The notes: a model not told the origin generated them from the sequence alone. DNA of 61,589 nucleotides, filler included, from Deltaproteobacteria bacterium (GCA_016283195.1; 7 parts of 7 records of this genome joined end to end with filler, not necessarily neighbours in it), one strand, 5' to 3'; positions 6,055 to 52,209 are shown, counted from the first letter of the whole stretch. Numbers and translations: made by a program.

Positions 6055-7413
6055 TCATTTTGGTGAGCATTGGCCATTTTTACAAACATATTCATCAAGG
6101 CAATCATAGACTGAAGAGAGACAAGTATCACCCAGATTGCCGCTGCCCACATCATTGCGCACACAAACCCAAAGATTATTCTCGCCAAGTTGCTGCTCGC
6201 AATCAAAATAGCCGTAAACATTGCTATCACCGGCAAAAGCCGTACAATCTTTCGCGCAAATACTTAAATCGGCGGCATAAAGGTGACAAATACCGCTCCG
6301 GCAGTCGGTATTGTAAAGGCAGGGATAACCATTAGGTAATTTGCTGGAATTCTTATACGGTGTACCGACAGGGCCGCAAATACCTTCTTCGTTACAAGTA
6401 CCGCTCTTGCAATCGCTGGAGATGTTGCAAGGATGGCCATCCTCTATAATGTGGTCAATATTATAGGTGCGCGGGCCGGTACAGGGTCTTTCGCCCGTCG
6501 GCATACAAAAGTTATCGATGCAATTTTCGCTTTTACAATGATAATCATCATAACAGGCCCCGCCGTCTTCTACATTCAGCTCAAGCGCCTGAGCCAGGCA
6601 AACAGCCGGATAAATGGGCGTTTCATCCATGCAAAATCCGCTTTTACATTCGTCATCTCTCTGGCATTCTTTGGTGCAATAACCAAGTATGCAATAAAGG
6701 CCCTTGGCACAATCAAAAACGGCATTATTACATGGGGCCCCCTCGCCGCTATGATTCTCCGGCAAACAGCTTCTACCGCTTAGCGACTGCGGATCATCCT
6801 GACAAGTATAAGGGCCGATATTTACAGTACTATCGTCACAGGCACTGGCGCAGATATTCAAATCACGCCCATGCCAGCAGTAGCCGCTCTGGCACTCTGC
6901 ATCAAACCAGCAGGGGTAGTTATCGCGGTTTTTAAGGGCTGTTTTAACCGTGTCCCCGCAATAGCGCGAAATGGTACCATTTTCTTCATCCCGGTAAGTT
7001 TTGCAAAAACCGCTCAGACAATCGTAATGAAAATTACAGGGCATACCGTCTTCAAGGCGAAACTCGGTGGGATAGTCCTCGAGCGCACCGACGCATTGCT
7101 CAACGGCAAAGCGGCACTCTACTGTGTCAAAATGGCAATTTTCATTGCAAGTCAGGCGGCCGGAAGCATAACCCTGCTCCAAAGTATAACAGTTCTTGCC
7201 ATTAAGATTTTCGCCGTCGCATTCTTCACCGTCGCGGAGGTCTATCCGGCCATTGCCGCATTTGGGAAATTTAGGATTAAGCGGATCTTCTTCCTCAAAA
7301 GACGGCGCTGTATAATCCGTTTTATTCTTAGGCTGACCGCTACTATTTTCACAAGCCGCAAGAAGCGGCAATATCGCTAAAAGCATACACCATATTATAT
7401 TATAAAATTTCAT
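6055..7413 (-). CDS. Cysteine-rich lipoprotein with Myxococcus-type Cys repeat
   Basis: GAGGAGG RBS, lipobox LLAAC, CGNG..D..EECDG.NL.G..C repeat, then many C-x5-C-x-SG-x-C modules. Confidence 0.8.
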   Translation of the reverse strand: MKFYNIIWCMLLAILPLLAACENSSGQPKNKTDYTAPSFEEEDPLNPKFPKCGNGRIDLRDGEECDGENLNGKNCYTLEQGYASGRLTCNENCHFDTVECRFAVEQCVGALEDYPTEFRLEDGMPCNFHYDCLSGFCKTYRDEENGTISRYCGDTVKTALKNRDNYPCWFDAECQSGYCWHGRDLNICASACDDSTVNIGPYTCQDDPQSLSGRSCLPENHSGEGAPCNNAVFDCAKGLYCILGYCTKECQRDDECKSGFCMDETPIYPAVCLAQALELNVEDGGACYDDYHCKSENCIDNFCMPTGERPCTGPRTYNIDHIIEDGHPCNISSDCKSGTCNEEGICGPVGTPYKNSSKLPNGYPCLYNTDCRSGICHLYAADLSICAKDCTAFAGDSNVYGYFDCEQQLGENNLWVCVRNDVGSGNLGDTCLSSVYDCLDEYVCKNGQCSPK

Positions 7414-7559
7414 AAGGAGTTCCTCCTCAGAAACAGCCATAAAAATGTAAGCCAAAAGCGGCTTTTTGGTCAATCTGCTAATTGCCAGGAATAAAAAGAT
7501 TTGCTAGGAGGTTTGGCTTACAGCGCCGTAATAAAGGCTATGGCGTTTCGGAGGTTTTA

Positions 7560-8783
7560 ATGAAAAAACGGGTATTCTTATTATTTATTGCTGCAGCAAC
7601 ATTTTTAATGCCGCAGTTTGCCTATGCTCAGGATGGAGCCACTGAGGCTGCAGCCCAGGAAAAGGCTATTGCAAACTCAGCCGCCCCGACGGCTGTGCGC
7701 CTGAATGACAACCATGAAAAACACCTTTTTTACTTTTTCTACCGCACCGGCTGCCCGCACTGCAAAGAGGCTCATCCTTATGTAAATGAATTAAAAGCCA
7801 AATATCCGGATATTACCTTTAAAGAGATAAATATCATGGATAGTGAGGAAAATCTGGAACTTTTGCGCAAAACGGCCCGCGAGCTCAAGCTGGAGAGCCT
7901 GGGCGTGCCGCTTTTTGTCATGGACGGCAAATCGGTGGTGGGCTTCCAAAAGGGGCAGCACGAAAAGCTCATCGAAGAGATGATTACCGAACACTTTTCC
8001 GATCCCAGCACCGACGCCTGTGAAGAGCGGGAGAAAAAGACCATTCAGGTGCCATTTTTGGGCCAGATTGATCCGCATCTGGTGTCGCTGCCCAGTTTTA
8101 CCTTTGTTATCGGCCTCTTGGATGGCATAAATCCCTGTGCCATGTGGGTGCTTATGTTCCTCTTAACCCTGCTTGTAAATGCCAAAAGCCGCCGCAAAGT
8201 GGTGCTCATCGGCTCTATTTTCGTCCTCTCTTCGGCAGTAGTCTATTTCCTCTTTATGACGGCCTGGCTCAATATTTTTACTTTTTTGGGCGTTTCGCCT
8301 TACGTCTCCATCGGCCTCGGTATTGTGGCTGTCACTATGGGCCTCATCAATGCCAAGGAGTTTTTCTTCTTTAAAAAGGGCGTAAGCCTCATGATTCCCG
8401 AGTCACAAAAGCCAAAACTTTTCAAGAAGATGCGCGCTATTATAAATAGCAAATCCGGCATTTTTTCCATCCTCGGAACTATAGCGCTCGCCTTTTTTGT
8501 CAATTTGATTGAGCTGGGCTGCACCGTGGGCCTGCCGGCTATTTACACCAAAGTATTAACTACTCAGCATATCGGCACCGCTACCAAGTATTTTTACATG
8601 ATGCTCTATAATCTCTATTATGTAATTCCGCTCGCTATTATCGTAGCCGGTTTTGCCTTTACCATGGGGCGCTTTAAACTGGAAGAAAAGCATGCCCGCT
8701 GGCTAAAATTGGTGAGCGGCACCCTTATGGTCACTTTGGGCCTCATCCTCATAATAAAGCCGGATCTTTTGGTTTTTGGCTAA
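7560..8783 (+). CDS. Thioredoxin/glutaredoxin domain fused to CcdA/DsbD-like transmembrane domain
   Basis: Signal peptide, CPHC motif, then about 6 TM helices with DGINPC and ELGCT cysteines. Confidence 0.85.
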   Translation: MKKRVFLLFIAAATFLMPQFAYAQDGATEAAAQEKAIANSAAPTAVRLNDNHEKHLFYFFYRTGCPHCKEAHPYVNELKAKYPDITFKEINIMDSEENLELLRKTARELKLESLGVPLFVMDGKSVVGFQKGQHEKLIEEMITEHFSDPSTDACEEREKKTIQVPFLGQIDPHLVSLPSFTFVIGLLDGINPCAMWVLMFLLTLLVNAKSRRKVVLIGSIFVLSSAVVYFLFMTAWLNIFTFLGVSPYVSIGLGIVAVTMGLINAKEFFFFKKGVSLMIPESQKPKLFKKMRAIINSKSGIFSILGTIALAFFVNLIELGCTVGLPAIYTKVLTTQHIGTATKYFYMMLYNLYYVIPLAIIVAGFAFTMGRFKLEEKHARWLKLVSGTLMVTLGLILIIKPDLLVFG

Positions 8784-11349: not shown

Positions 11350-11449
11350 NNNNNNNNNNNNNNNNNNNNNNNNNNNNNNNNNNNNNNNNNNNNTTAATTA
11401 ATTAANNNNNNNNNNNNNNNNNNNNNNNNNNNNNNNNNNNNNNNNNNNN
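11350..11449. other. Artificial contig linker
   Basis: N44-TTAATTAATTAA-N44 (six-frame stop spacer). Confidence 0.99.
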
Positions 11450-15185: not shown

Positions 15186-15285
15186 NNNNNNNNNNNNNNN
15201 NNNNNNNNNNNNNNNNNNNNNNNNNNNNNTTAATTAATTAANNNNNNNNNNNNNNNNNNNNNNNNNNNNNNNNNNNNNNNNNNNN
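15186..15285. other. Artificial contig linker
   Basis: N44-TTAATTAATTAA-N44. Confidence 0.99.
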
Positions 15286-32179: not shown

Positions 32180-32279
32180 NNNNNNNNNNNNNNNNNNNNN
32201 NNNNNNNNNNNNNNNNNNNNNNNTTAATTAATTAANNNNNNNNNNNNNNNNNNNNNNNNNNNNNNNNNNNNNNNNNNNN
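32180..32279. other. Artificial contig linker
   Basis: N44-TTAATTAATTAA-N44. Confidence 0.99.
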
Positions 32280-36316: not shown

Positions 36317-36416
36317 NNNNNNNNNNNNNNNNNNNNNNNNNNNNNNNNNNNNNNNNNNNNTTAATTAATTAANNNNNNNNNNNNNNNNNNNNNNNNNNNN
36401 NNNNNNNNNNNNNNNN
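36317..36416. other. Artificial contig linker
   Basis: N44-TTAATTAATTAA-N44. Confidence 0.99.
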
Positions 36417-39854: not shown

Positions 39855-41132
39855 TTACAAAAGACAATCAATCATGTCGGGGCCGAAAACGGGAATATGG
39901 GCGTTTTGGGCTACCTCCAGGCGTTCGGCAAAGGAATCGTCTATGAAAATAGCCTCTTTATTTTTAATATAGGCCGATTTTTTTTCTGCCTTTTCCAGCT
40001 GATGTACTTCATCAAAGAGCTCACTTAGGCGCAGTTCTTTAAGTTTTTCTTTAAGAACGCCACCTTTGTGCCGCGAGAGCAAAATGAGCTTTTTTCTTTC
40101 ATTAAGCCCTTTAAACAAAAGTGTGAGCAGAGCGGTATTGAGACGCTTTTCTTCCAAATAGAGGCAATCGTCAAAATCCACATATATTTCATTATATTTA
40201 AGCGAAAGACGATAGCGATTATCGAGGGCCCTATCAAGCTCAATATCGTAGCCGCTATTGGTTAAGACGGAAAGTGGATAACCGAAAGCATCAAAGAGCG
40301 TCATGAGGGCAAAATTAAGACCGATGGCCCGAAAAAGGCCGGAAGAACCGCCAAGGCGACTGGCTACTTCCAGCAAAGTAAGCTCGCCGGCGCTATCTTC
40401 CTTTAGCTGGAAAAACCAGGCACCGCGCATGGTTAGTGCGCCGTTTATGGCCCTAGCCATGGCTAAAAATTCCTGGTTTCGCTCTGTAGCCGGCACGGTA
40501 TTTACGCTGATGCCGTTCATGATGCGGCGGCGCCGGCGCCCCTTGGCTACCAAAAGCCGCCCCTCTTTATCGGTAAAGCAATCGACAGTATATTCCGGGC
40601 CGCTTAAATATTCGCTGAATATATAAGGCTTATTTAAGGCTTTTATAGCGCTGAGCGCGGCTTCGTTCTCTATTTTTTGGGCCCCGCGGGAGCCGTAACC
40701 AATGTCCGGCTTTGCAAAAATAGGAAAACTGACATCCTTATTTATATCAATAATTTTTGGACATTTTACCACCGCTGAAAGGGCTTTATATGTAGCGCTT
40801 TTGGAGAGGCAGACGGCGGTGGTTTTAGGCGGCGGGGCAATAACCAAAGCGCCCAAAAGGGGCTCGTTTTCTTTCGTCGCGCTGATAACGCTGTCCATAG
40901 CCGGATAGATGGCATCTATATGCTCTTTTTGCACCAGAGCGGCTATGGCCGGAATAAAGGCCGGGTCATTTACCATTGGCAGGCCGCCGATATAGTTTTC
41001 ATAGACAAATTGGCCGTGGTCGGCTACCGAGCTGGCGCCGATGAGCTCAAAATGGCGGCTTTCTTTTAGGGCCCGGTGGATTTCCAGGGCTATTTCCGAA
41101 CCGCAGGGAAAGACTAAAATGCGCTTTTTCAT
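39855..41132 (-). CDS. ATP-grasp domain protein with C-terminal HAD-like domain
   Basis: ILVFPCGSEI, KP..GYGSRG, EYL.GPEYTVD, LLEVASR; then DFDD...FIDDSF.ER. Confidence 0.85.
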   Translation of the reverse strand: MKKRILVFPCGSEIALEIHRALKESRHFELIGASSVADHGQFVYENYIGGLPMVNDPAFIPAIAALVQKEHIDAIYPAMDSVISATKENEPLLGALVIAPPPKTTAVCLSKSATYKALSAVVKCPKIIDINKDVSFPIFAKPDIGYGSRGAQKIENEAALSAIKALNKPYIFSEYLSGPEYTVDCFTDKEGRLLVAKGRRRRRIMNGISVNTVPATERNQEFLAMARAINGALTMRGAWFFQLKEDSAGELTLLEVASRLGGSSGLFRAIGLNFALMTLFDAFGYPLSVLTNSGYDIELDRALDNRYRLSLKYNEIYVDFDDCLYLEEKRLNTALLTLLFKGLNERKKLILLSRHKGGVLKEKLKELRLSELFDEVHQLEKAEKKSAYIKNKEAIFIDDSFAERLEVAQNAHIPVFGPDMIDCLL

Positions 41133-42052
41133 GCTTCATCACCGTTTATTTGCAAAACTGCCATGCCGTCTTTTAGTGGCAGGTAGAGAGTGTCGCCTTT
41201 TAAAAGATATTGCCCGGCGAGCTTCATATCGGGCCGTTTTTCCAGTAATTTTTTGAGATAATAGCAATCGATGCCCAAATTTACATGCAGAGGATAGGAA
41301 TCATTAAGACCGGTTAGCATGAGTTCCAACTCGTCCATGGTGAGCTTTTCTGGATCAATAGCTCTATCGGCAAAATTTGGCCGCCTGGCCCAAAAGGTGT
41401 GCTTTTCCGGCTGCGGCTCACCGGCGGGAATGGTGCCGCTTTTTATCATCTTGGCAAAAAGCTCGCCTCCCAGGCGGCCGCAGTGATCTATGTAATCAAT
41501 AATATGCATTTTTTCGGTAATTTGCAGTGCTGCTTGGCTGATAATGGCTCCGCGATCGGCGCGCTCGTTCATGTGATGAAGAGTTACGCCGGAGGCTTCA
41601 TAAAGCCCCTTTTTCCATATCCAGAAGAAGGGGGCTGGGCCGCGCAAGAGGGGCAGAAGCGAGGGGTGCAGATTAAGAGCGGCGCTGGGGGCCAAAGAGA
41701 GTAAATTTTGGCTAAAAAGAGTGTTAAAACCAATAGTTAAAAAAAAGCTCGGGCGCTGCCCGGCAATATGAGCCAAAACAGCCGGATTATTGACATCATG
41801 CGTTTCCAGCATATCGCAGCCCATTCTGATGGCGAGTGGACTAAGGTCATAAGGGCCGCGCGTCAGGCTGGGAATATAGCGCTCTCCGCGGGAAAACTGA
41901 AAATATTGCAAAGGGTCACGCGGCTTTTGCGGATTTTTAGGCGGCAGGCCCACCACCAGCAAAAGCGGAAATATCCCTTGCTCCAGAAGTACTTCAATAG
42001 CTCTATAAGTATAAACGGTGTGTTGTCCGAAAAGGATAAAAGGTAAGCGCAT
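41129..42052 (-). CDS. Formyltransferase-family protein (Fmt-like N-terminal domain)
   Basis: NLHPSLLP.LRGPAP and GVTLH.M...D.GAII. Confidence 0.85.
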   Translation of the reverse strand: MRLPFILFGQHTVYTYRAIEVLLEQGIFPLLLVVGLPPKNPQKPRDPLQYFQFSRGERYIPSLTRGPYDLSPLAIRMGCDMLETHDVNNPAVLAHIAGQRPSFFLTIGFNTLFSQNLLSLAPSAALNLHPSLLPLLRGPAPFFWIWKKGLYEASGVTLHHMNERADRGAIISQAALQITEKMHIIDYIDHCGRLGGELFAKMIKSGTIPAGEPQPEKHTFWARRPNFADRAIDPEKLTMDELELMLTGLNDSYPLHVNLGIDCYYLKKLLEKRPDMKLAGQYLLKGDTLYLPLKDGMAVLQINGDEA

Positions 42053-42147: not shown

Positions 42148-45100
42148 TTATTTGTCCCCTTCATAAATGACATAAGCCGGCTTTAAGTGCGAGCGCCCAA
42201 TGCGGATGCCGTAAAGTGCGCGTTTATCCTGCGGATAGATGGGGCCGGAAGATCTGGATTCGTGAGTGTAGTAAGTACGGGCGCTTCCATAACCTTGGCC
42301 TCCCCTTAAATACATAGAATCCACGAGCTCCTGATAGCCGCCCACCATGTCATAAATGCCAAGGGAGTTGGGTTCTTTTTGCTTTATTTCATGCGGATCA
42401 TCATCGCGCCAGGCAATAGTGGCAAGATATTCCGGATATTTATCTTGATTTCTCCTGATATGATCTTTTTGCAAAATCTCTTCCATGCCGCCAAGTGAGG
42501 CATATTCCCACTCTTCCTCGGTTAAGAGGCGGTAACCATTAGCTTTTTCGTCGGCAATGCCAAAATATTCGCCCACATAATCCGGTGTGTCATAATAATA
42601 TTTGCCTTTACTATCGCGGGCTATTTTTTTATCACCTCTGTTTTTGAGCCAAATTGCCGGATCTCTTTCGCGGGAGATATCGGAATCGTAATAATATGGC
42701 GTTAGCCCTTCGGCTAAACTCAAAAGGTTACAATAAATAACCGCTTCGGCATAGCTTATATTATAAGCCGGATAATTCGGGCCCAGGCCATACTTGGCGC
42801 TAGGGCGGTAGGGCGGATTCCACTCATCGCGGGAATTTGCCTGCCCGGGGCCGGTGCCTTTGCTGGCTACGCCGTAATAAGTCATGTATTTTTCCCATTC
42901 GCCTTGGGTAACAGCATGGTCAAAAACGTAAAAATCTTTGATAGTTACTTCCTCCTTACCTTTAAAGATGGCCGACCTGCTGACTCTTTTGCTGATGGTG
43001 CCGCCCTTTACCAATATGAGGCCGTTTTGGCTTGGCCGAGCGGTTTTCACGGTAAGGGTGACATCGCTATCGGGCATAGTAAATGAGCCGTCGTCATTTA
43101 TATAGAGATTATGATCTTTCCCATCTTTCATAGCGAGGGAATTAAACTCGCAACCTTTTGGCAAAAGCACTTTTATAGTTATGTTTTCGCCTTTCACCGG
43201 CGCAGAGTTACTCAGTTCAACACGCCCACAAGTGAGCGGCTCCACTTTAATTTCCAGGCGCTTTGGCACTCTAAAGCGGGCCGATACGGTAACCGCCGAA
43301 TCAGGCATAACAAAGGAATTTGCAGTACTTAAAGAAATTTCCCGCCCGGATTCATCTCTTACTTTATAGCTTTCGAGCTCATAACCGGCCTCAGGTGCCG
43401 CTTTAAGGCGCACAATAGCGCCGCTTTTAGCCGCTTTTTGTTTAATGGTGATGGTGCCAAAGCGGGCCGGCTCCACTCTTATTGGCAGAGCTTTTGGCTT
43501 TGAAACTTTGGTGCGGGCCAGGCGGAAAGTGGGGTAAATATTGCCTCCCAGCATATTAAGCTTGTAGCGAATAGATATTTTTTGCTCATTACTTAAAGCA
43601 GATGCGCGTAAAAAGTCGCCGCGCTGCACATGGTATTCACCCTCAGCCGGCCCCTCCAGCGGAGTATCGGGGCTAATATTTTTGGCTTCGACAAATTTAT
43701 CCCACACAAGTTCGCCGCGCTGCTCATCCAGCATGCCGTAAAGGCCGTTTAAATTGGGCATGCGGGTGGTAAAATCGCTTTCAAATGTATCGGAACTGGA
43801 GAACATTTTTTGGTCGATATTTTCTATACCGTTCCAATATAAAGTCTGCGATTCCGGGATCTTACCATCATGCCCGCCTCTTAGGGCATATTCCCATTCC
43901 ACTTCGGTTGGCAGGCGGTAGCCCTCGGCACTTAGATCCATTTTGAGCATTTTATCCATGGCTCCATGCATCATGCCATCGCTTTTTCCGGGATAAACGG
44001 TGGTGTAATAACCGGCGGCATTTTTTTGCACATAAAGATCTTTTACCTCGGCCCAATCGGCGGGTTCATAGAGTTTTTGCCCATTATATTCAATATAATA
44101 GGCCGGCGCATAGCCCTCGGCAATACTGCGCTCATTGCAATAAATTATGGCATCATACCAGACTAAATTTCCGTCATCTGAGGCATATTTTTTAAAATCG
44201 GCCGGGTTTACTTTGGTTTTAGCTATATAAAAATCATTTATTTTGATTTGGCGCCCATAAATAAACATCGGCGAATATTTGGCGGCCTGGCTCACTGTGC
44301 CGCCTTTTATTAAAACCATGTCGTCTTTGCCGGTGCGCGGCGTACTTTGGAGGCTCGCGGCGCTGCCCTCTTTTTCCAGCCATTTGTTTTTAAGGTCTTC
44401 CATCTTGAGCGCGCTGACATCGGGAGTTACCGGGCCGGGCAGCTTTAAAGCTATGGTGATAGCCGGCAAAACGCCCATAATATTAGAAGTTTCTGCGCTA
44501 TCGGAGAGAACGCTGCCGTAGCGGCTGCCAATGCCTACCCGCCCGCGCCCGGTGCTGGCATAGCCCATATCGGGAGCGTGTTCGTCGTAGCCGGGAGCGC
44601 GCAAAAAGTAGTCATCGCCCACCGGATAAGTGTGCTCATGGAGCCTTCTTCTTGCGCCCATGGCGAGAGCATAATCGGTAGCAAGCCGCACTCTGGCCGG
44701 GAACTCGGTGTCCCACTTCATGGGCGGCAAATCTTTGGGCACAAAGCCGTATTCGCGGTTTTCCATCTCCATGGGGCTCAAAATAAATACTTTATCCTGC
44801 GTATTGGCGCTCCCATAATTCTTGGTGCGCTTTTTGCTGTAATCATCAATAATATAAGAAGAAGCGTCGGTATTTTTAACCAAAGCAGTAAATATTTTCT
44901 TTTGCGCCGCCTGGCTAAAAGCGCCTTGCAAAAAGCCTTTGCCTTTATAGCTGGTATTTAATTTTGTGGCCCCTTTAGCTGTCGGTATATAGTAATAATT
45001 AAGGCCATTTAAGTAGGCTCTAAGCTGGCTGTGCTGATAGCTATTTTCATATACTTTTTTGTTGCCGCCGATAGTGCGCAGCGAATAATTTTTATCTTTT

Positions 45101-45618
45101 AAATCGTTAGCCAAATCATCTTTGGCAGCGCTCATGTAGTAGGGCACGGCAGCGAGAATGGATTCGGCGAGGAGCAGCGCTTTTTGGCTGCCGTTATAAT
45201 TTTGGGTGATAACCCGCCACTTAATGGGCTCCACTTTAAAATAGGCCGTTTTACCGGCCGAAGCGGGGTAAACTGTAGAATTATCGCTATAAAAATCAAA
45301 AAAATAGGAAGTATTGTCATAAGCCGGCGCTTCCGGAGCGCTTTGCAAAATCTTGGCATACCAAAAGCCGTCGCTGCCGAGGTAATAGGTATTGCCGCCG
45401 CTAATATGCTTTTTTTTTTCATCAATAGTGACATCTATAGCTTTAATAGTTTGCGGCCAGTCGCCGAAATAGACATAGGTGCCGCTAGGGCCAGCCGTGC
45501 CGTCGGTACCCTGAGGCAAAACTTCCGGATTGCTGTGAAACTTGTATTCCGCAGCGCGGGCCAGCGGCAGAGCGGTAAAGAGCAGAAAAAAAGAGAGAAT
45601 AAAAGATTTTTGGGCCAT
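42148..45618 (-). CDS. Large secreted multidomain protein with two FGE-sulfatase (SUMF1-like) domains and two beta-sandwich repeats
   Basis: Signal peptide; YFGDWPQT/FKVEPIKWRV N-terminal domain; two GYRL.TE.EWEYA..GG...PN..G.Y.M domains; two F.MPDS.VT repeats. Confidence 0.8.
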   Translation of the reverse strand: MAQKSFILSFFLLFTALPLARAAEYKFHSNPEVLPQGTDGTAGPSGTYVYFGDWPQTIKAIDVTIDEKKKHISGGNTYYLGSDGFWYAKILQSAPEAPAYDNTSYFFDFYSDNSTVYPASAGKTAYFKVEPIKWRVITQNYNGSQKALLLAESILAAVPYYMSAAKDDLANDLKDKNYSLRTIGGNKKVYENSYQHSQLRAYLNGLNYYYIPTAKGATKLNTSYKGKGFLQGAFSQAAQKKIFTALVKNTDASSYIIDDYSKKRTKNYGSANTQDKVFILSPMEMENREYGFVPKDLPPMKWDTEFPARVRLATDYALAMGARRRLHEHTYPVGDDYFLRAPGYDEHAPDMGYASTGRGRVGIGSRYGSVLSDSAETSNIMGVLPAITIALKLPGPVTPDVSALKMEDLKNKWLEKEGSAASLQSTPRTGKDDMVLIKGGTVSQAAKYSPMFIYGRQIKINDFYIAKTKVNPADFKKYASDDGNLVWYDAIIYCNERSIAEGYAPAYYIEYNGQKLYEPADWAEVKDLYVQKNAAGYYTTVYPGKSDGMMHGAMDKMLKMDLSAEGYRLPTEVEWEYALRGGHDGKIPESQTLYWNGIENIDQKMFSSSDTFESDFTTRMPNLNGLYGMLDEQRGELVWDKFVEAKNISPDTPLEGPAEGEYHVQRGDFLRASALSNEQKISIRYKLNMLGGNIYPTFRLARTKVSKPKALPIRVEPARFGTITIKQKAAKSGAIVRLKAAPEAGYELESYKVRDESGREISLSTANSFVMPDSAVTVSARFRVPKRLEIKVEPLTCGRVELSNSAPVKGENITIKVLLPKGCEFNSLAMKDGKDHNLYINDDGSFTMPDSDVTLTVKTARPSQNGLILVKGGTISKRVSRSAIFKGKEEVTIKDFYVFDHAVTQGEWEKYMTYYGVASKGTGPGQANSRDEWNPPYRPSAKYGLGPNYPAYNISYAEAVIYCNLLSLAEGLTPYYYDSDISRERDPAIWLKNRGDKKIARDSKGKYYYDTPDYVGEYFGIADEKANGYRLLTEEEWEYASLGGMEEILQKDHIRRNQDKYPEYLATIAWRDDDPHEIKQKEPNSLGIYDMVGGYQELVDSMYLRGGQGYGSARTYYTHESRSSGPIYPQDKRALYGIRIGRSHLKPAYVIYEGDK

Positions 45619-45672: not shown

Positions 45673-45772
45673 NNNNNNNNNNNNNNNNNNNNNNNNNNNN
45701 NNNNNNNNNNNNNNNNTTAATTAATTAANNNNNNNNNNNNNNNNNNNNNNNNNNNNNNNNNNNNNNNNNNNN
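45673..45772. other. Artificial contig linker
   Basis: N44-TTAATTAATTAA-N44. Confidence 0.99.
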
Positions 45773-46993
45773 AAGGGCCGGCACAATGGTATCGCGCAGG
45801 CGGTAGGGGGTGATGGGGTTAATGTAAATACGGGTACCGCCCTCAAAGCCGGCCGGCGTATTTACGCGTAATTTAATAAGAATATGGAATGGTATTTTAT
45901 CCATGGAATCTTTTGGCGTATAATACCACTCCTCATTGCAGGATATTTTGCGGCCTAAAGCGGCGTGCATAGCGTGCACTAAATCGCTCATATCTTTGAG
46001 CTCTTCTGGCAAAAGCTCGTGTGGGCGCGTCTTGGCGCTCTTGGAATAAATGGCGAGAGAGGGATAGCGGTGACCGATATCCACAAAGGCAATAGCATGG
46101 TCATTTTCGGCCACCACTCTATTGGTATGGGCAGCAAAATTCACCAATAACTCATTATAAATATTGGGATTATCCCGCACTTTGCGCGAGGCCCATTCAA
46201 GGGCGGTGCCCCACTCATCAAGGCCCACCAATTGGCGGTGCAAGTGATCGAAAGAGGCCCCGGCCGGCGAGAGCCAGTTCTGGAAGGTGGTGACATAACG
46301 CACATAGCGATTGTGGCTATAAATATCCTTCATGGCGGCAATAGTAAAATTCATATAAGCAAAGTGCTCATCAGGCGTTAAGTCACCGGAAGCAAAAAGT
46401 TCGCTCGCCGGCCCTTCCCCGGGCACAAAGTGGCGATGGCAAATAATGAGCTCATGGGTGCCGGCAAAAAAAGGATCCACCTGGTGGAGCTTTTCCTGCT
46501 CGCTGATGGCCTCTATCTCCTCCGGGCGTTTACCCGCCATTTTTAGTTTATAATCAACTATTTTTAAGACATGCTGCCGCCCGGCCGGGTCATCAAGATA
46601 GCTTCTTTTCCACTGGGCGATATTTTCGTCTAAGTGATAATTATAGTTTTTGCTCCAATAGTTTAAACTCACTATTTCAAAGAGGTTGGAAACGCGCCTA
46701 AAAACCCAGCTATTCTGCCTGGCTTCATGATAGCTAAGGCGCGGTTTCATCACATATTGACCGTTTTCCAGCACCAGGCGGTTTTTTTCCGGCGGGGTAG
46801 AGTCCAGCTGGCTGACACAAAAATCGCAATAATCTTCCGGCTCATGGCGCTCACGGGCTTCGTTATTATAGCCGGGGCGCAAGGGGCGATTATCGCGGCC
46901 GGGCACCGACCAAACCTCAGTCTCGGTAATGGGGTTTACCTGCTTGATAGTGCCGTCTTTCATGTGGATAAGATATTCGTGATATGCACTCAT
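45773..46993 (-). CDS. DUF4921-family protein (GalT/HIT-like), 3' truncated
   Basis: DGTIKQVNP..TEVWSVPGR.NRP, CDFC, TPPEK.R, FQNWL.PAGASFDHLHRQ. Confidence 0.8.
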
Positions 46994-48357
46994 GGCTCAT
47001 CGTCCTTTTTAAGGAGCTGGCTACACTCCTCTTTGAGCAGCTGGCGGACAAGTTGCAAAACATCATTAAAACCGAGCAAAGTAGCAATTTGTTCCAGCGA
47101 AAAGCGCCCCTCTTCGTCACCTATAGCGGCTCGCGCTCTTTGCAAAATAAGCGCCCAATCATCCTCGCTTAAATTTTCCGGCGCGAGCAAATGTTTAACA
47201 CTTTGCCACTTTTCTTCCAGCTCGCGAACTCTGGCTATTTCCAGCCTTAAAGTGCCGCGGGCCCTTAACATATCCATATAATAATAAGAAAGCGGCAAAT
47301 CACCGCTGAATAAAAGTTGCCGCAAGAGCAATCGCCGACGCAGTATTTGCTCTAAGTGGTTAATATGACAATTATTTTGTTTAAGCCAGTTATTTATGCC
47401 AATGGGCGAATTAATGGCGCGTTCCCGCCAAAAGAGCTGCGCTTCGGCCTCCAGTTCCGCAGGCGAAACAGTAAGATTCAGGAGCCTAGCGGCGCTCTCG
47501 GCCAGCATATCCAGCTGAGCAGAAAGCTCCCTAGCCATAAAGCCCCTACTCAGCCGGCCATATTCCAATAAGAGCCGCGGTGTGACTCCGCTGCCGCTCC
47601 CCGGTTCCAGGGAGATATCTTCACCGATTAAGCGTTCTAAATAAATAGTATCGGAAAGCACAAAATCCGGGGAGGACGGCCGGGCGGGGTTTTTCTGCCA
47701 AGATGCGGCTTTTTTTAAACATTCTATGGCATCAAGGCGCTTTCTATCCACCCCGCCGGCCGCGCAAAACTGCCTGAATTCCGGAGTTATTTCCACACCG
47801 GCAGTTTTGCCGGCAGCGAGCAGGGACGCCACAGTGCGCTCCGGGTAATAATCATTTTGCGCTATATTAAGCAGGGCGGCGGCGCTTTCTTTAGTGATAA
47901 TATTCTGCTCCAGCGCCGCCGCCAGAGTAGCCCGCACATTGACAAGCGGCCAAGAGAGTGGGCGAAAAGACTCTTCTTTGGGAGCATGGAGCACGGCCAC
48001 TTCGTCATCGCGGGTGAGCTCGCCGCTCTTATACCAATCATAAATTTGCCCCACCCCGACCATACCAAACGGGTGAAGTTCCGCTGCTCTAAGAGCGCCC
48101 ATACTGGCAGCGCCGAATATTTTAACACCTTGAGAAAGCGCAAGCAGCAGCTCTTTATGCCACACTGCCGGCACACGGTTAAAATAGCCGTCGATAATAA
48201 CGACAAGGCGCGGCTTTTGCCAGAGAAGGCCGGCTATATCACCTTGAGATACCGGCCCTAAGTAGTGGGCTTTTAATATTTTTTCGGCCTCGCCTTGCTC
48301 TAAAGAGGGCCCTAAAAAAACAAATGTGTGGTTTATAAGATCGTTATCCTGCCGCAC
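46990..48357 (-). CDS. tfuA: TfuA-like protein with C-terminal extension
   Basis: FVFLGPSL, IIDGYF..VPAVWHKE, GAASMGALRAAEL..FGM.G.G, DDEVAV.H, YYPER, KRLDA; probable GTG start overlapping ycaO stop. Confidence 0.93.
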   Translation of the reverse strand: MRQDNDLINHTFVFLGPSLEQGEAEKILKAHYLGPVSQGDIAGLLWQKPRLVVIIDGYFNRVPAVWHKELLLALSQGVKIFGAASMGALRAAELHPFGMVGVGQIYDWYKSGELTRDDEVAVLHAPKEESFRPLSWPLVNVRATLAAALEQNIITKESAAALLNIAQNDYYPERTVASLLAAGKTAGVEITPEFRQFCAAGGVDRKRLDAIECLKKAASWQKNPARPSSPDFVLSDTIYLERLIGEDISLEPGSGSGVTPRLLLEYGRLSRGFMARELSAQLDMLAESAARLLNLTVSPAELEAEAQLFWRERAINSPIGINNWLKQNNCHINHLEQILRRRLLLRQLLFSGDLPLSYYYMDMLRARGTLRLEIARVRELEEKWQSVKHLLAPENLSEDDWALILQRARAAIGDEEGRFSLEQIATLLGFNDVLQLVRQLLKEECSQLLKKDDEP

Positions 48358-49618
48358 CGCTCTCTTCCCTCGCTTGTTTAAAAGAGGCTTCGCGTTCACC
48401 GCGCGTCACCCCGGGAATATGAAAGGCGGTTTCCAGCTTAGGAATCACCAGGCGCACCACTTCTAAAGGCCAAGCGGGCATAGTGAGCCTGAAACCGGCC
48501 ACTTGATCTATTTTGGCTTTTTTGAGCTCGCAAAGAGCGTAGGCAATATCCTCCTCCACTGTCGGCTTTCCAAGCTGTTTTAAACTGCGCCCATCCAGGC
48601 ACCCCTGCCCGCCGGGGACAAAATATTCATCTAAAGCTTTCCAGAAAAAAGCGGTGAAATTATTCTCATATTTACTGCGCGTAATATCATCGCGCACGCC
48701 GCTGATGAGCGTCAGCCGCCCCTGAATGGCCTCGGTAACCGCCCGGCACATGGCATGGTAGGGATTATGATGAGTGCCGGAGCCAAAAAAACAGCTGCGC
48801 TGACTCAGAGGCCGAAAACAGCTATCTTCTTCAAAAAGGAGAGCTGTCATCGTATAAAGATTAATATCGCGGCTGACATTGACAATAACCACCTTGAGCC
48901 CGGCGGCAACAATTTTGTCCAGTAAGGCCCTTAAGGGCGGATATGCCAAAGTATCTAAATCGAGTTGATATTTTGGCCACTCATTAAGGGGCACAGTATC
49001 CATGAAAATAGTCCAGGCATCGCGCTCAATGAGCTCGCAAAGAGCGTGATAAGTGGCTTCCGGCAGTTTTGAGCCGCTGGCGAGGCCGTTGGAAGAGCGC
49101 ATAAAAGTTGCTGTTTCTCCCTCTAAAATCCGAAAATCAAGATTCACCGTCTCAAGAGGCGCCCAAATGCTTTTACCGCTAAAAAGCTCTTCCCCCCGGG
49201 CCCAGAGCATAACTTTATCAGGGCTCAAAAGAGCCTCTTTAAGGCGCGGTAATTCCAAGGGATTTATGGCCATTTCCCCGCGCGCCGAAAGCTCGTTATA
49301 ACTGGCTCTAAGAGTGGTGAGCGGCGCGCGTTCGGCCACATAAGCCTCAAGCGATTCCATAGCCGCCCCGATGCGCGCTTCCGCACTTAATACGCCCTTG
49401 CCCTGGCTCACCGTGAGCGAATAAGAATTTGGGCGCACCGCCATCCAAACCGGAATACCCACCCAATCAAGACCGGTAAGGTCAGCCACTCTGGTAATGC
49501 CGGCCAGCGGCAAAACCGGCTGGATACGCTGCCACATCTCCTCGGCTTCAAGCGCTCTCTCCGGGAAGCTAACCTCACGTTTTTCTTGGTGAAAATCCGG
49601 GCCACTGAATATCGTCAT
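48344..49618 (-). CDS. ycaO: YcaO-like protein (TfuA-associated thioamide synthetase type)
   Basis: GITRVADLTGLD..GIPV..AVRPNS..L.VSQGKG, MESLE, SSNGLASG, ELIERDA, EAIQGRLT.ISG.RDD; no PxP C-terminus. Confidence 0.95.
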   Translation of the reverse strand: MTIFSGPDFHQEKREVSFPERALEAEEMWQRIQPVLPLAGITRVADLTGLDWVGIPVWMAVRPNSYSLTVSQGKGVLSAEARIGAAMESLEAYVAERAPLTTLRASYNELSARGEMAINPLELPRLKEALLSPDKVMLWARGEELFSGKSIWAPLETVNLDFRILEGETATFMRSSNGLASGSKLPEATYHALCELIERDAWTIFMDTVPLNEWPKYQLDLDTLAYPPLRALLDKIVAAGLKVVIVNVSRDINLYTMTALLFEEDSCFRPLSQRSCFFGSGTHHNPYHAMCRAVTEAIQGRLTLISGVRDDITRSKYENNFTAFFWKALDEYFVPGGQGCLDGRSLKQLGKPTVEEDIAYALCELKKAKIDQVAGFRLTMPAWPLEVVRLVIPKLETAFHIPGVTRGEREASFKQAREESGAAG

Positions 49619-49626
49619 GGCTTTTC

Positions 49627-51450
49627 TTATTTAGTGCAATCAAAAGCAACCTTGGCTTTTTGCCCGGAGGTCACTGTGATATTTTTAGTTATTTTGCGCC
49701 CGTTTTCACATTCGGCTTTTACCTGATAATCACCGGCCGGCAGATTTTGATAGTTCGTTGGGGTATCATCTTTGCTCCCGGTACCAAGGGAAATCTTGGC
49801 CCAGGGATTGGCATTAACAAAGAGAGTTCCCTGGCCTTGCGGCAAAGTATATGTAGCGTCTTTACCGTTTTTAACAGTTACCTGAGCAGTGTGGCTGGTA
49901 CCTGTATCCGGCCGATAAAAGCGCAATTTATAATTACCGGGACTAAGTTCCAGATTACGCACCGGCACATTGCCGCGCTCGCGGCCGTTAATACTTAGGC
50001 GCCATTGTTTATCGGCACTAATAGTCAAATAGCCTTTGGGACTTTCGGCATGAGCTTTATGAGCCGCTTCTCCGGCGGCCGGAATTTCCGCTTTGGCGCC
50101 CTCTTGGGGCTCAGCCATCGGTGGTGCCGGAATAGCTGCCGGAGGTATTGGTTTTTCCTCCGGCCGGGCTGTTTGATCTACGGTTTTAGCTACCGCTGTT
50201 TTCGGCTCCTCCGGCAGCGGCTGAGCAGGCTTTTTTAAAGTGCCAAAAGCCAAAAAGAGCACGCAAACGGTAATAAGTGCCATCACAACTGCGCTGATCC
50301 AGAGAATCATGCGCATTTTGGGATCAACAACCTCTTCTTCCTCAATAATAACTTCGCTGCCCTCTGGAGTAATAACCCGGGTAGCGGTGGCTCCGGCACG
50401 GCGCTGAGCACTTAAGCCGCTGGGCACCGTGTCATCGGCAGAACGCCTGGGAGAGGGAGTGTGGCCGGCCAGGCTAATTGTAGAAGCTTGTTTGGCCATT
50501 TCTTCCAGCTTTTCCGGGCTATAAGGGTCGTCTTTTAATTTATCGGCAAAGAGCTCCTGCATATAAGAGCCCAGAGCCTGCGGCGAGGTGCTGCTGCCTT
50601 GATCTAAAATAAACTGCTCAAGATCATTAGCAAAATCATAAGCTGTGGCATAGCGGTCATCGGCTTTGGCCGCCAGGCTATGCATAACAATTTCTTCCAG
50701 ATCTTTGGGGTAACCGGGAATAATTTTGCTGGGCGGCGGCACCCTACAATTCATCACCGCATGGAGCGTCTCTATCTCATTTTCACGCTTAAAAAGGCGC
50801 TGGCCGGTAGTGATTTCATAAAGCACAATACCGGTAGCGAAAATATCACTGCGCCCGTCTATCGGCTTACCTTTGGCCTGTTCCGGGGACATATAACTAT
50901 ATTTGCCCTTAAGCACACCGGAACGCGTTTCGGTCATTTTGCCACGTGCTTTAGCCACGCCAAAATCCACAATTTTGGGGAAACCATTATAAGTTACCAA
51001 AATATTTTGCGGACTTATATCGCGGTGCACCAAACCCAGCGGCTTACCCATGGCATCACAGCTGGCATGAGCAAAACCGAGACCGTTGCAGGCTCCGTAA
51101 ATCATCTGTGCGGCATTGACATAAGGGATAATATGCCCTTTGGCCACTTCGGCATTATAGATTTGCCGCACATCTTCGCCTTTAATAAGCTCCATGGCGA
51201 TAAAATAGGAGCCTTCTATTTCCCCCAGCTCATAAATTTGCACAATATTTGGGTGATTGAGATTAGCGGCAATGCGGGCCTCATCCTGAAACATGGTAAT
51301 AAATTCGGAATGTTCCGTAAGGTGAGGCAAAATGCGCTTAATGCAAACCAGCCGCTCAAAACCGGCCAAACCGGTTTGCCTGGCCAAAAAGACTTCGGCC
51401 ATGCCTCCGGTGCCCAGTTTTTTTAAAAGTACATAATTACCAAACTGCAT
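49627..51450 (-). CDS. Hanks-type Ser/Thr protein kinase with TM helix and PEGA-like extracytoplasmic domains
   Basis: FGNY.L.KKLG.GGMAEVFLA, HRDISPQN, DFG.AK, KGK..YMSPEQ; TM helix; C-terminal PEGA-like repeats. Confidence 0.95.
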   Translation of the reverse strand: MQFGNYVLLKKLGTGGMAEVFLARQTGLAGFERLVCIKRILPHLTEHSEFITMFQDEARIAANLNHPNIVQIYELGEIEGSYFIAMELIKGEDVRQIYNAEVAKGHIIPYVNAAQMIYGACNGLGFAHASCDAMGKPLGLVHRDISPQNILVTYNGFPKIVDFGVAKARGKMTETRSGVLKGKYSYMSPEQAKGKPIDGRSDIFATGIVLYEITTGQRLFKRENEIETLHAVMNCRVPPPSKIIPGYPKDLEEIVMHSLAAKADDRYATAYDFANDLEQFILDQGSSTSPQALGSYMQELFADKLKDDPYSPEKLEEMAKQASTISLAGHTPSPRRSADDTVPSGLSAQRRAGATATRVITPEGSEVIIEEEEVVDPKMRMILWISAVVMALITVCVLFLAFGTLKKPAQPLPEEPKTAVAKTVDQTARPEEKPIPPAAIPAPPMAEPQEGAKAEIPAAGEAAHKAHAESPKGYLTISADKQWRLSINGRERGNVPVRNLELSPGNYKLRFYRPDTGTSHTAQVTVKNGKDATYTLPQGQGTLFVNANPWAKISLGTGSKDDTPTNYQNLPAGDYQVKAECENGRKITKNITVTSGQKAKVAFDCTK

Positions 51451-51465
51451 CTATTAGTATTCTTC

Positions 51466-52209
51466 CTAAGCGGCATCCTTAAACATATCTATCATCTTGC
51501 GCACTGTGTCGTCAAAGCTGTCACATTCATCGGTGCCCTGCTTCAAAAACGACTCAACTTCTTCAATTTTATCAATGGCATAATCAGTTTGCGGGTCGGT
51601 ACCGTATTGGTAAGCACCGAGCAAAATCAAATCGCGCTGTTTTTCATAAGTGGCTAAAACTTCGCGCAGTTTACCGGCCGCCTTTTTGTGCTCTTTGGTG
51701 ACAATGCCGCTCATAACACGGGAGAGTGAAGGCAAAACATCAATAGCCGGCCAGTGGTTACGGGCACCTAAAGCACGGTTTAAAATAATGTGACCATCCA
51801 AAATACCGCGCACTTCATCGGCGATAGGCTCTTCCATATCACCGCCCTGCACCAGAATGGTATAAAGAGCGGTAATAGAGCCGGTATCGCTGTTGCCGGT
51901 GCGCTCCATCAGGCGGGGAATCTGGGCAAAAACACTGGGCGGATAACCCTGTCTAGCCGGCGGCTCGCCGAGAGCCAAGCCGATTTCACGCTGGGCACGG
52001 GCAAAACGGGTGGAAGAATCCATCATAAAGAGCACTTTGTGGCCTCTATCGCGGAACCATTCGGCAATAGCCGTGCTGACAAAGGCGCTCTTTAAACGCA
52101 CCAGCGAGGGGGTATTGGAGGTAGCCACAACAACCACCGACTTTTTCATACCCTCTTCGCCCAAAGATTCTTCTATAAAATCACGAACTTCGCGGCCACG
52201 CTCACCAAT
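51466..52209 (-). CDS. sctN: Type III secretion ATPase (SctN/FliI family), 5' truncated
   Basis: [48 protein letters not shown]. Confidence 0.9.

Follow-up and report, generated by a model that had tools for sequence, protein, structure and literature searches.

A putative TfuA-dependent YcaO pair, possibly coupled to a receptor kinase, in a deltaproteobacterial draft genome

Introduction

YcaO enzymes spend ATP to activate a backbone amide oxygen, on the way to a thioamide. To our knowledge, bacterial YcaO-TfuA pairs number in the thousands, with products described for only a handful of them. In methanogens, a 2017 study in eLife reportedly found that such a pair thioamidates a glycine of McrA. 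Here we analyse a bacterial YcaO-TfuA pair in the draft genome of a gut-associated Deltaproteobacteria bacterium (GCA_016283195.1), which belongs to a sparsely sampled lineage. The stretch of DNA under study, 61,589 nucleotides long and hereafter called the window, carries the pair between positions 45,773 and 52,209, in a run of five genes that also holds an sctN-type ATPase gene, a receptor-type Ser/Thr kinase gene and a gene of the DUF4921 family.

In bacteria, TfuA-YcaO pairs have been described from clusters for thioamidated peptides that are made by the ribosome and modified after translation (RiPPs), such as the thioamitides and thiovarsolins, of which 613 cluster families were surveyed according to the available part of PMC8120280. 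TfuA acts as a hydrolase and, together with thiocarboxylated homologues of ThiS, delivers sulfide (available part of PMC13063428, citing Liu et al. 2021). The same part of that source describes that Escherichia coli YcaO thioamidates the ribosomal protein uL16, a substrate found by proteome-wide co-folding. Furthermore, that signalling enzymes occur beside YcaO systems has already been noticed by database curators, as the names of two models tell: TIGR03903, 'TOMM system kinase/cyclase fusion protein', and TIGR04510, 'putative peptide modification system cyclase'.

For the locus in the window, the evidence leans modestly towards a TfuA-dependent YcaO thioamidation pair, probably kinase-coupled, that stands between two unrelated conserved genes and whose substrate is not encoded at the locus. 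The locus provides a test case for whether bacterial TfuA-type pairs ever modify proteins, and for why signalling kinases or cyclases so often adjoin YcaO-TfuA pairs.

Results

The ycaO-tfuA pair

The initial annotation, made from the sequence alone, had described five co-oriented genes. Five open reading frames (ORFs) are indeed found on the minus strand, with Pfam assignments to a type III secretion system (T3SS)-type ATPase, Pkinase plus PEGA, YcaO, TfuA and DUF4921:

51466..52209, minus strand: sctN, C-terminal 247 codons, 5' end cut by the contig end (Pfam, NCBIfam)
49627..51450, minus strand: receptor-type Hanks Ser/Thr kinase, 607 amino acids (Pfam Pkinase + PEGA)
48344..49618, minus strand: YcaO, 424 amino acids (Pfam YcaO)
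46990..48399, minus strand: long-form TfuA (Pfam TfuA)
45773..46993, minus strand: DUF4921 (GalT/HIT-like), 407 codons, 3' end on contig C162 (Pfam DUF4921)

The spacing also agrees with the first description, with 15 nt between sctN and the kinase gene, 8 nt between the kinase gene and ycaO, an overlap of ycaO and tfuA and an ATGA overlap of tfuA and DUF4921, and this layout leaves no intergenic room for a precursor ORF. The overlap of ycaO and tfuA measures 56 nt with the mechanically assigned GTG start and 14 nt with the GTG at 48357. The latter agrees with the start of the closest TfuA homologue, and a 14-nt overlap with ycaO is also present in L103, a 9,353-bp metagenome contig of a close relative that was used to extend the locus upstream. 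The GTG at 48357 is therefore likely to be the true start of tfuA, giving a protein of about 455 amino acids.

That the two genes form a genuine pair of the TfuA-associated type, as first proposed, is borne out by Pfam, NCBIfam and structure matches: ycaO is directly followed by tfuA on the same strand, and the two overlap. YcaO matches Pfam PF02624 over the full profile (1-325 of 325) with 206.2 bits (cut-off 25.7). Its best curated models are the generic YcaO domain and TIGR03266, the model for archaeal McrA-glycine thioamidation, where its score of 175.5 stays below the equivalog cut-off of 365; the S12/EcYcaO-type model gives 30 bits against a cut-off of 700. The closest solved structure is M. 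jannaschii MJ1094 (6pe3/6peu, E 1.3e-22), with which the SNGLASG and ELIERDAW stretches align. Residues E195, E198 and R199, which we take to be ligands of ATP and Mg, are invariant across 45 sequences. A YcaO tree with 89 rows places the sequences of the window and of L103 as sister to a Nostoc sequence (Shimodaira-Hasegawa-like approximate likelihood ratio test 96), on a branch of length 1.73 that does not belong to the main clade, which has 83 rows.

The genome contains two more YcaO genes that stand alone, each for a protein of about 500 amino acids (C31:42334-43293 and C61:10817-11788, examined as loci L008 and L009). One has LpoB and a trypsin-like protease for neighbours. Upstream of the other lies a MatE exporter, and the gene overlaps that of an Asp-Al_Ex permease. 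The surroundings of both are not of RiPP type.

TfuA matches Pfam PF07812 with 165.1 bits (cut-off 30) and nearly reaches the equivalog NF033432, with 222.6 against a cut-off of 235.2. A profile built from 30 long TfuA sequences matches the M. acetivorans TfuA structure (PDB 6xp8) at E 1.6e-71. The AlphaFold model of the protein (mean predicted local distance difference test, pLDDT, 85.8) superimposes its N-terminal domain on 6xp8 with a TM-score of 0.93 on the target (Foldseek E 8e-19, 41% identity). According to the profile alignment to 6xp8, the TfuA domain extends to residue ~216 and is followed by an all-helical extension of about 220 amino acids (about residues 250-469), which is conserved among long-form proteins of different phyla. 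Long-form proteins of this type, 32-37% identical across about 93% of the length, also occur in Myxococcota, Pseudomonadota, Cyanobacteriota, Acidobacteriota and others.

Modelled alone, the extension is again all helical (pLDDT 86.7). A RiPP recognition element was considered for it and rejected, as the model lacks a winged-helix sheet. Foldseek with the full model matches the N-terminal domain only. In VIA-align the top rows for the extension are peptide-binding domains of the chaperones PEB4, SurA, PrsA and trigger factor, with Z from 7.6 to 3.9, values under the trust level for helical matches; as a lead, the extension might hold an unfolded substrate. ThiS-family carriers are represented by four matches in the genome. 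YcaO and TfuA are intact and, judged by these features, of the thioamide-forming type.

Extension of the locus

The window contains six linkers of the form N44-TTAATTAATTAA-N44, which show that seven contigs were joined end to end:

11350-11449, 15186-15285, 32180-32279 and 36317-36416, no strand: contig linkers N44-TTAATTAATTAA-N44
45673..45772, no strand: contig linker N44-TTAATTAATTAA-N44, one flank of contig C105
52210..52309, no strand: contig linker N44-TTAATTAATTAA-N44, other flank of contig C105

Neighbourhood claims that span any of the six joints are therefore void. Positions 45773-52209 correspond letter for letter to one entire contig, C105, of 6,437 bp, and an FGE-sulfatase protein and a peptidase M3 that appear to be neighbours in the window sit on other contigs. 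Because sctN and DUF4921 are both cut by the ends of C105, the absence of other genes from this contig weighs little. The initial statement that no precursor, protease or transporter lies on the contig is accordingly true, yet nearly empty for a contig of 6.4 kb, and its force arose from an assembly joint taken as real sequence. The source genome is a draft of 3.22 Mb in 190 contigs, 100% complete by marker genes, and the sole representative of its phylum among the genomes compared.

To both sides the locus could be extended beyond C105. Downstream, contig C162 shares at its end 61 identical bases with the start of C105, and it supplies the last codons of DUF4921. After DUF4921, C162 carries a short ORF, a PIN toxin gene, a sulfatase-family gene and a DUF2281-like ORF and, further on and on the opposite strand, a 634-amino-acid gene without an assigned family, then Lon. 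The short ORF and the PIN-domain gene directly downstream of DUF4921 (L007, 8346-8990) look like a VapBC-type toxin-antitoxin pair. Upstream, L103 carries a Fib_succ_major surface protein gene, a gap of 161 nt and then sctN (452 amino acids), kinase, YcaO, TfuA and DUF4921, the last cut by the contig end. The order of the five genes is thus kept in this relative, which is a close one, so that the linkage is shown at close range only. DNA datasets that contain pieces of the locus are animal-gut metagenomes of 2-5x depth with contig pieces of 170-670 nt; none of these pieces spans the whole stretch, and none shows sctN joined directly to DUF4921.

Search for a precursor

Neither extension revealed the missing parts of a conventional cluster. 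In the ~9 kb downstream (C162), where the sulfatase and Lon genes are divergent or distant, there is no precursor, leader protease or exporter, and in the 2.3 kb upstream in L103 there is no precursor-like ORF or family match. We then assembled related loci with TfuA profiles, 80 from species-representative genomes and 80 from metagenomes. A YcaO match is present in 78 of the 80 genome loci and 72 of the 80 metagenome loci and, among the rows listed, lies just upstream of tfuA on the same strand.

Small ORFs of 57-140 amino acids directly upstream of ycaO were recovered by a hidden Markov model (HMM) in 31 of the 160 loci, nearly always in that slot (for example L023:8399-8674, L047:2549-2818, L057:8320-8610, L104:4156-4494, L156:2589-2906 and L164:8276-8698). 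They share an N-terminal strand-like motif, many have a conserved C-terminal motif, and the family is absent from Pfam and NCBIfam; we regard them as a candidate precursor class for long-TfuA systems. A second group consists of repeat-tailed proteins of about 218 amino acids (F6, 14 members) and companions of about 430 amino acids (F4, 19 members). The F6 tails comprise 5-8 tandem copies of a 5-6-residue peptide, and the genes lie downstream of tfuA, by the ~430-amino-acid protein and a cyclase-TPR protein (L019:12890-13501, L084:4662-5285, L132:3893-4546 and L088:12670-13341). Nif11 leaders occur beside the pairs of cyanobacterial relatives.

Four precursor families were tried across the source genome and none was found there. 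The small-ORF HMM gave a best E of 1.6 against the six-frame translation, F6 and F4 had no match at E<=1, and no Nif11 leader was present. The search for NHLP leaders was also negative, a weak result, as its control matched in no control genome. McrA (PF02249) has no match in the genome at E<=0.01, with positive controls in two methanogens.

The kinase and its place beside the pair

In the protein encoded directly upstream of ycaO, an N-terminal kinase domain is followed by one hydrophobic segment (about residues 378-404), a linker rich in Pro and Ala and, at the C-terminus, a PEGA domain. It scores 124 bits with Pfam Pkinase and 38 bits with PEGA, and the HRD, DFG and SPE motifs are present in the translation. 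Judged by these features it looks like an active receptor kinase whose PEGA region would face outward. With TIGR03903 (cut-off 705.75) it scores 78 bits, all of them from the kinase domain (positions 6-243 of 1267). Many PEGA kinases, several of them named Myxococcota by their sources, share 57-67% identity with this domain, which is high for a genome that stands alone in its phylum among those compared; this similarity could reflect transfer or a deep relationship.

To compare the five genes as units of evolution, the window and L103 were aligned gene by gene at the codon level, giving amino acid identity, synonymous divergence (dS) and the ratio of nonsynonymous to synonymous divergence (dN/dS):

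sctN: identity 99.2%, dS 0.41, dN/dS 0.017
DUF4921: identity 98.3%, dS 0.43, dN/dS 0.032
kinase: identity 86.0% (83% by tblastn), dS 0.72, dN/dS 0.129
YcaO: identity 89.6%, dS 0.71, dN/dS 0.092
TfuA: identity 81.6%, dS 0.93, dN/dS 0.130

All five genes are under purifying selection, and none is therefore decaying. Kinase, YcaO and TfuA form one rate class; sctN and DUF4921 form the other and are far more conserved.

Signalling proteins are also the commonest neighbour family of related YcaO-TfuA pairs. At least 31 of the 80 genome loci and at least 16 of the 80 metagenome loci have, no more than 5 kb from the pair, a member of the kinase/cyclase family, in which Pkinase or Guanylate_cyc is combined with TPR and in some members also with AAA_16. 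Among these, at least 11 and at least 7 (L103 included), respectively, are of the kinase type. These counts are lower bounds, because the ORF caller is crude in high-GC DNA and lost core genes in 15 loci. The neighbours occur as Guanylate_cyc-AAA_16-TPR proteins of about 1,020-1,090 amino acids, Pkinase-AAA_16-TPR proteins of about 1,170-1,250, Guanylate_cyc-TPR proteins of about 590 and Pkinase-TPR or Pkinase-PD40 proteins of about 750-890. They score 239-352 bits with TIGR03903 and 39-55 bits with TIGR04510, all under the cut-off. A search of titles and main-text passages gave no published account of an association between kinases or cyclases and YcaO-TfuA pairs, although supplements may list such neighbours; the word 'kinase' is absent from the available main text of PMC8120280. 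At one locus of the series, L104, the order kinase, small ORF, YcaO and TfuA is flanked by a phage-type integrase (2-943) and a fragment of an N6 DNA methylase (7223-7576), which hints that some such modules are mobile.

The linkage between kinase and pair is kept in L103; the kinase orthologue P0244 (84% identical) lies on a contig of 9,353 bp, which is the length of L103. The linkage is probably also kept in a 50-60%-identical relative: the kinase homologue P0245 (60%, full length) and the TfuA homologue P0005 (50%) are each reported from one Logan contig that is 14,386 bp long. No DUF4921 gene from a contig of that size appears among the best 120 DUF4921 homologues. An earlier suspicion that kinase and TfuA are unlinked, from a 75%-identical TfuA (P0003) on a 31,027-bp contig as compared with P0244, was dropped because L103 carries both together; P0003 must then stem from a different assembly.

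Taken together, we consider it about an even question whether the kinase is functionally coupled to YcaO and TfuA. The alternative is that it is a mere neighbour and that the unit is ycaO-tfuA, an orphan pair with its precursor elsewhere. The membrane segment and PEGA domain are an ordinary receptor-kinase build, and tblastn finds 22 kinase-domain matches on 18 contigs of the genome, or about 20 kinase genes; adjacency by chance is hence unlikely for any one gene, yet not absurd. The YcaO tree shows no shared ancestry with the kinase-linked clades. On the other side stand the gap of just 8 nt before ycaO, the adjacency kept in L103 and probably in the more distant relative, the rate class that the kinase shares with YcaO and TfuA and not with the flanks, and the frequency of signalling enzymes beside such pairs. 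We regard a mere neighbour as a doubtful explanation, though one to be reckoned with.

Several observations weigh against the kinase-coupled pair that we favour. The kinase link is documented in one close relative and, beyond it, by inference from the equal contig sizes of P0005 and P0245; the abundance of kinases in the genome counts on the same side. The build of membrane segment and PEGA differs from the AAA_16/TPR (STAND-type) kinases of the kinase-linked clades, and the kinase label requires ten changes on the YcaO tree. As the branch of window and L103 lies outside the main clade, the link in the window arose separately and is a parallel, not a sign of shared ancestry. The higher dS of the three middle genes could stem from recombination or codon usage, not from shared function. 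Scans for consensus promoters and terminators gave counts at chance level, and no expression data for the locus were found among sequencing runs. Finally, short precursors easily escape profile searches, and the assembly is fragmented. A predicted complex of YcaO with kinase residues 1-330 scored 0.00 and gives no verdict.

sctN and DUF4921

The initial annotation had suggested that the substrate may be linked to type III secretion and had offered DUF4921 as a possible uncharacterised partner, and neither proposal found support in the comparison. The gene called sctN does encode an ATPase of the T3SS/FliI family (Pfam ATP-synt_ab profile 66-213 of 213, plus T3SS_ATPase_C), but only its C-terminal 247 codons are present, covering positions 180-422 of 423 of TIGR02546, and the N-terminal half is missing from the whole 190-contig assembly. 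Since the fragment is cut by the contig end, its TIGR02546 score is low (392.7); the full-length orthologue of L103 reaches 609.1, just above the cut-off of 604.75, and scores 598.2 with FliI_clade2 (cut-off 629.8). Export-apparatus genes are scattered in the genome, so that sctN does not lie within a secretion cluster. FlhA/SctV is found beside murB and an amylase gene (C83:5562-7730, L183) and FliP at a contig end (C58:19384-19695), and the sole FliI/SctN ATPase gene of the genome heads the putative kinase-ycaO-tfuA operon. No flagellin was found in the genome, which may carry a reduced or non-flagellar type III-like apparatus.

DUF4921 (PF16268) is matched with 548.9 bits (cut-off 28.5) over profile positions 1-399 of 425, the match being cut at 397-399. 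The best 120 homologues are for the most part 51-58% identical to it, with sources including Ignavibacteria, Nitrospirae, Planctomycetota, Chloroflexi and KSB1; this spread over many phyla fits a conserved metabolic enzyme. Full-length DUF4921 genes occur in 3 of 100 other sampled genomes, none of them with YcaO, TfuA or a kinase near; one is two genes from a GH57 glycosidase and one adjoins a sugar-binding protein. A literature search on DUF4921 returned nothing.

Among the 160 TfuA loci, DUF4921 and sctN are each found in one, which is L103 itself, and hence in none of the other 159. Given this absence and the independent distribution of DUF4921, we read sctN and DUF4921 as very probable bystanders, which would share a transcript with the middle genes and not a function. 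By their layout the five genes would be carried on one transcript; the apparent ties of the pair to T3SS and DUF4921 most likely reflect a gene order that arose by accident.

That all five genes act together, for example on a secretion substrate to which DUF4921 would add a nucleotidyl group, is very improbable: it draws on the tight spacing that suggests one transcript, since in L103 only sctN is preceded by a gap of 161 nt and a promoter-like site, on the identical order in that contig and on an ATPase gene set apart from other export genes (FlhA by murB, FliP on another contig), yet L103 is too closely related for its order to mean much, the flanks evolve 4 to 8 times slower than the middle genes at non-synonymous sites, sctN and DUF4921 are found in none of the 159 other TfuA loci, and three of three full-length DUF4921 genes compared elsewhere lack such neighbours.

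Other genes of the window

On another contig of the window (39855-42052 and 42148-45618), an ATP-grasp gene overlaps a formyltransferase-like gene, and beside this pair lies a gene for a 1,156-amino-acid protein with FGE-sulfatase, InlB B-repeat-like and DUF6273 domains.

Discussion

In the reading that we favour, YcaO would use ATP to activate a backbone amide oxygen and TfuA would free sulfide from a thiocarboxylated ThiS-type carrier, turning the amide into a thioamide. The kinase gene, ycaO and tfuA would be a three-gene unit between sctN and DUF4921. The substrate would most likely be a peptide or small protein whose gene lies elsewhere or in DNA that the 190-contig draft does not cover, a peptide being more probable than a folded protein. 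The kinase would regulate or sense, either switching the enzymes on upon an outside signal or responding to the product; such a role is suggested by the parallel with the kinase/cyclase-TPR proteins beside many related pairs.

A folded cellular protein as the target, be it the kinase, a part of the secretion apparatus, a ribosomal protein or another, would dispense with a precursor gene altogether. None of the four precursor families was found in the genome, the models and structures nearest to YcaO and TfuA are those of archaeal McrA modification, and the kinase fills the slot directly upstream of ycaO that precursors occupy in relatives. Thioamidation of a bacterial protein by YcaO is also published (PMC13063428, available part), although the uL16-modifying YcaOs have no TfuA nearby according to the same part. 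The genome has no McrA match, and homologous long-TfuA pairs in other bacteria mostly have candidate peptide precursors adjoining. The weak resemblance of the TfuA extension to peptide-binding chaperone domains fits an unfolded substrate as well. We therefore consider a protein substrate unlikely, and slightly more so its boldest form, in which the locus would be the first case of TfuA-dependent thioamidation of a folded bacterial protein, with the co-conserved kinase as switch or target. If true, an outside signal would be linked to a backbone sulfur mark via a receptor kinase.

Compared with described systems, the preferred kinase-coupled pair resembles the methanogen YcaO-TfuA system (TIGR03266/NF033432; 6pe3/6peu, 6xp8), with which it shares the same two adjacent families, the best curated models and the nearest structures. 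It differs in that the host is bacterial and has no McrA match, both scores stay under the equivalog cut-offs, a kinase adjoins, and TfuA carries the ~220-amino-acid helical extension, unlike the archaeal protein of 217 amino acids. With the bacterial thioamidated RiPP clusters it has the adjacent ycaO-tfuA pair in common; unlike them, it lacks a precursor, protease, transporter or further tailoring gene, and its YcaO lies on a long separate branch. As in the proteins described by TIGR03903 and TIGR04510, a signalling enzyme stands beside a YcaO system, but the kinase of the window has a membrane segment and PEGA, not AAA_16 and TPR. E. coli YcaO is, in the available part of PMC13063428, a precedent for a bacterial YcaO that acts on a folded protein without a precursor gene, and its clade, unlike the pair in the window, works without TfuA. 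At its core the locus thus holds an enzyme pair of a known kind. Its setting is what is unusual, with a lineage that stands isolated, no substrate that can be recognised and a receptor kinase conserved together with the pair.

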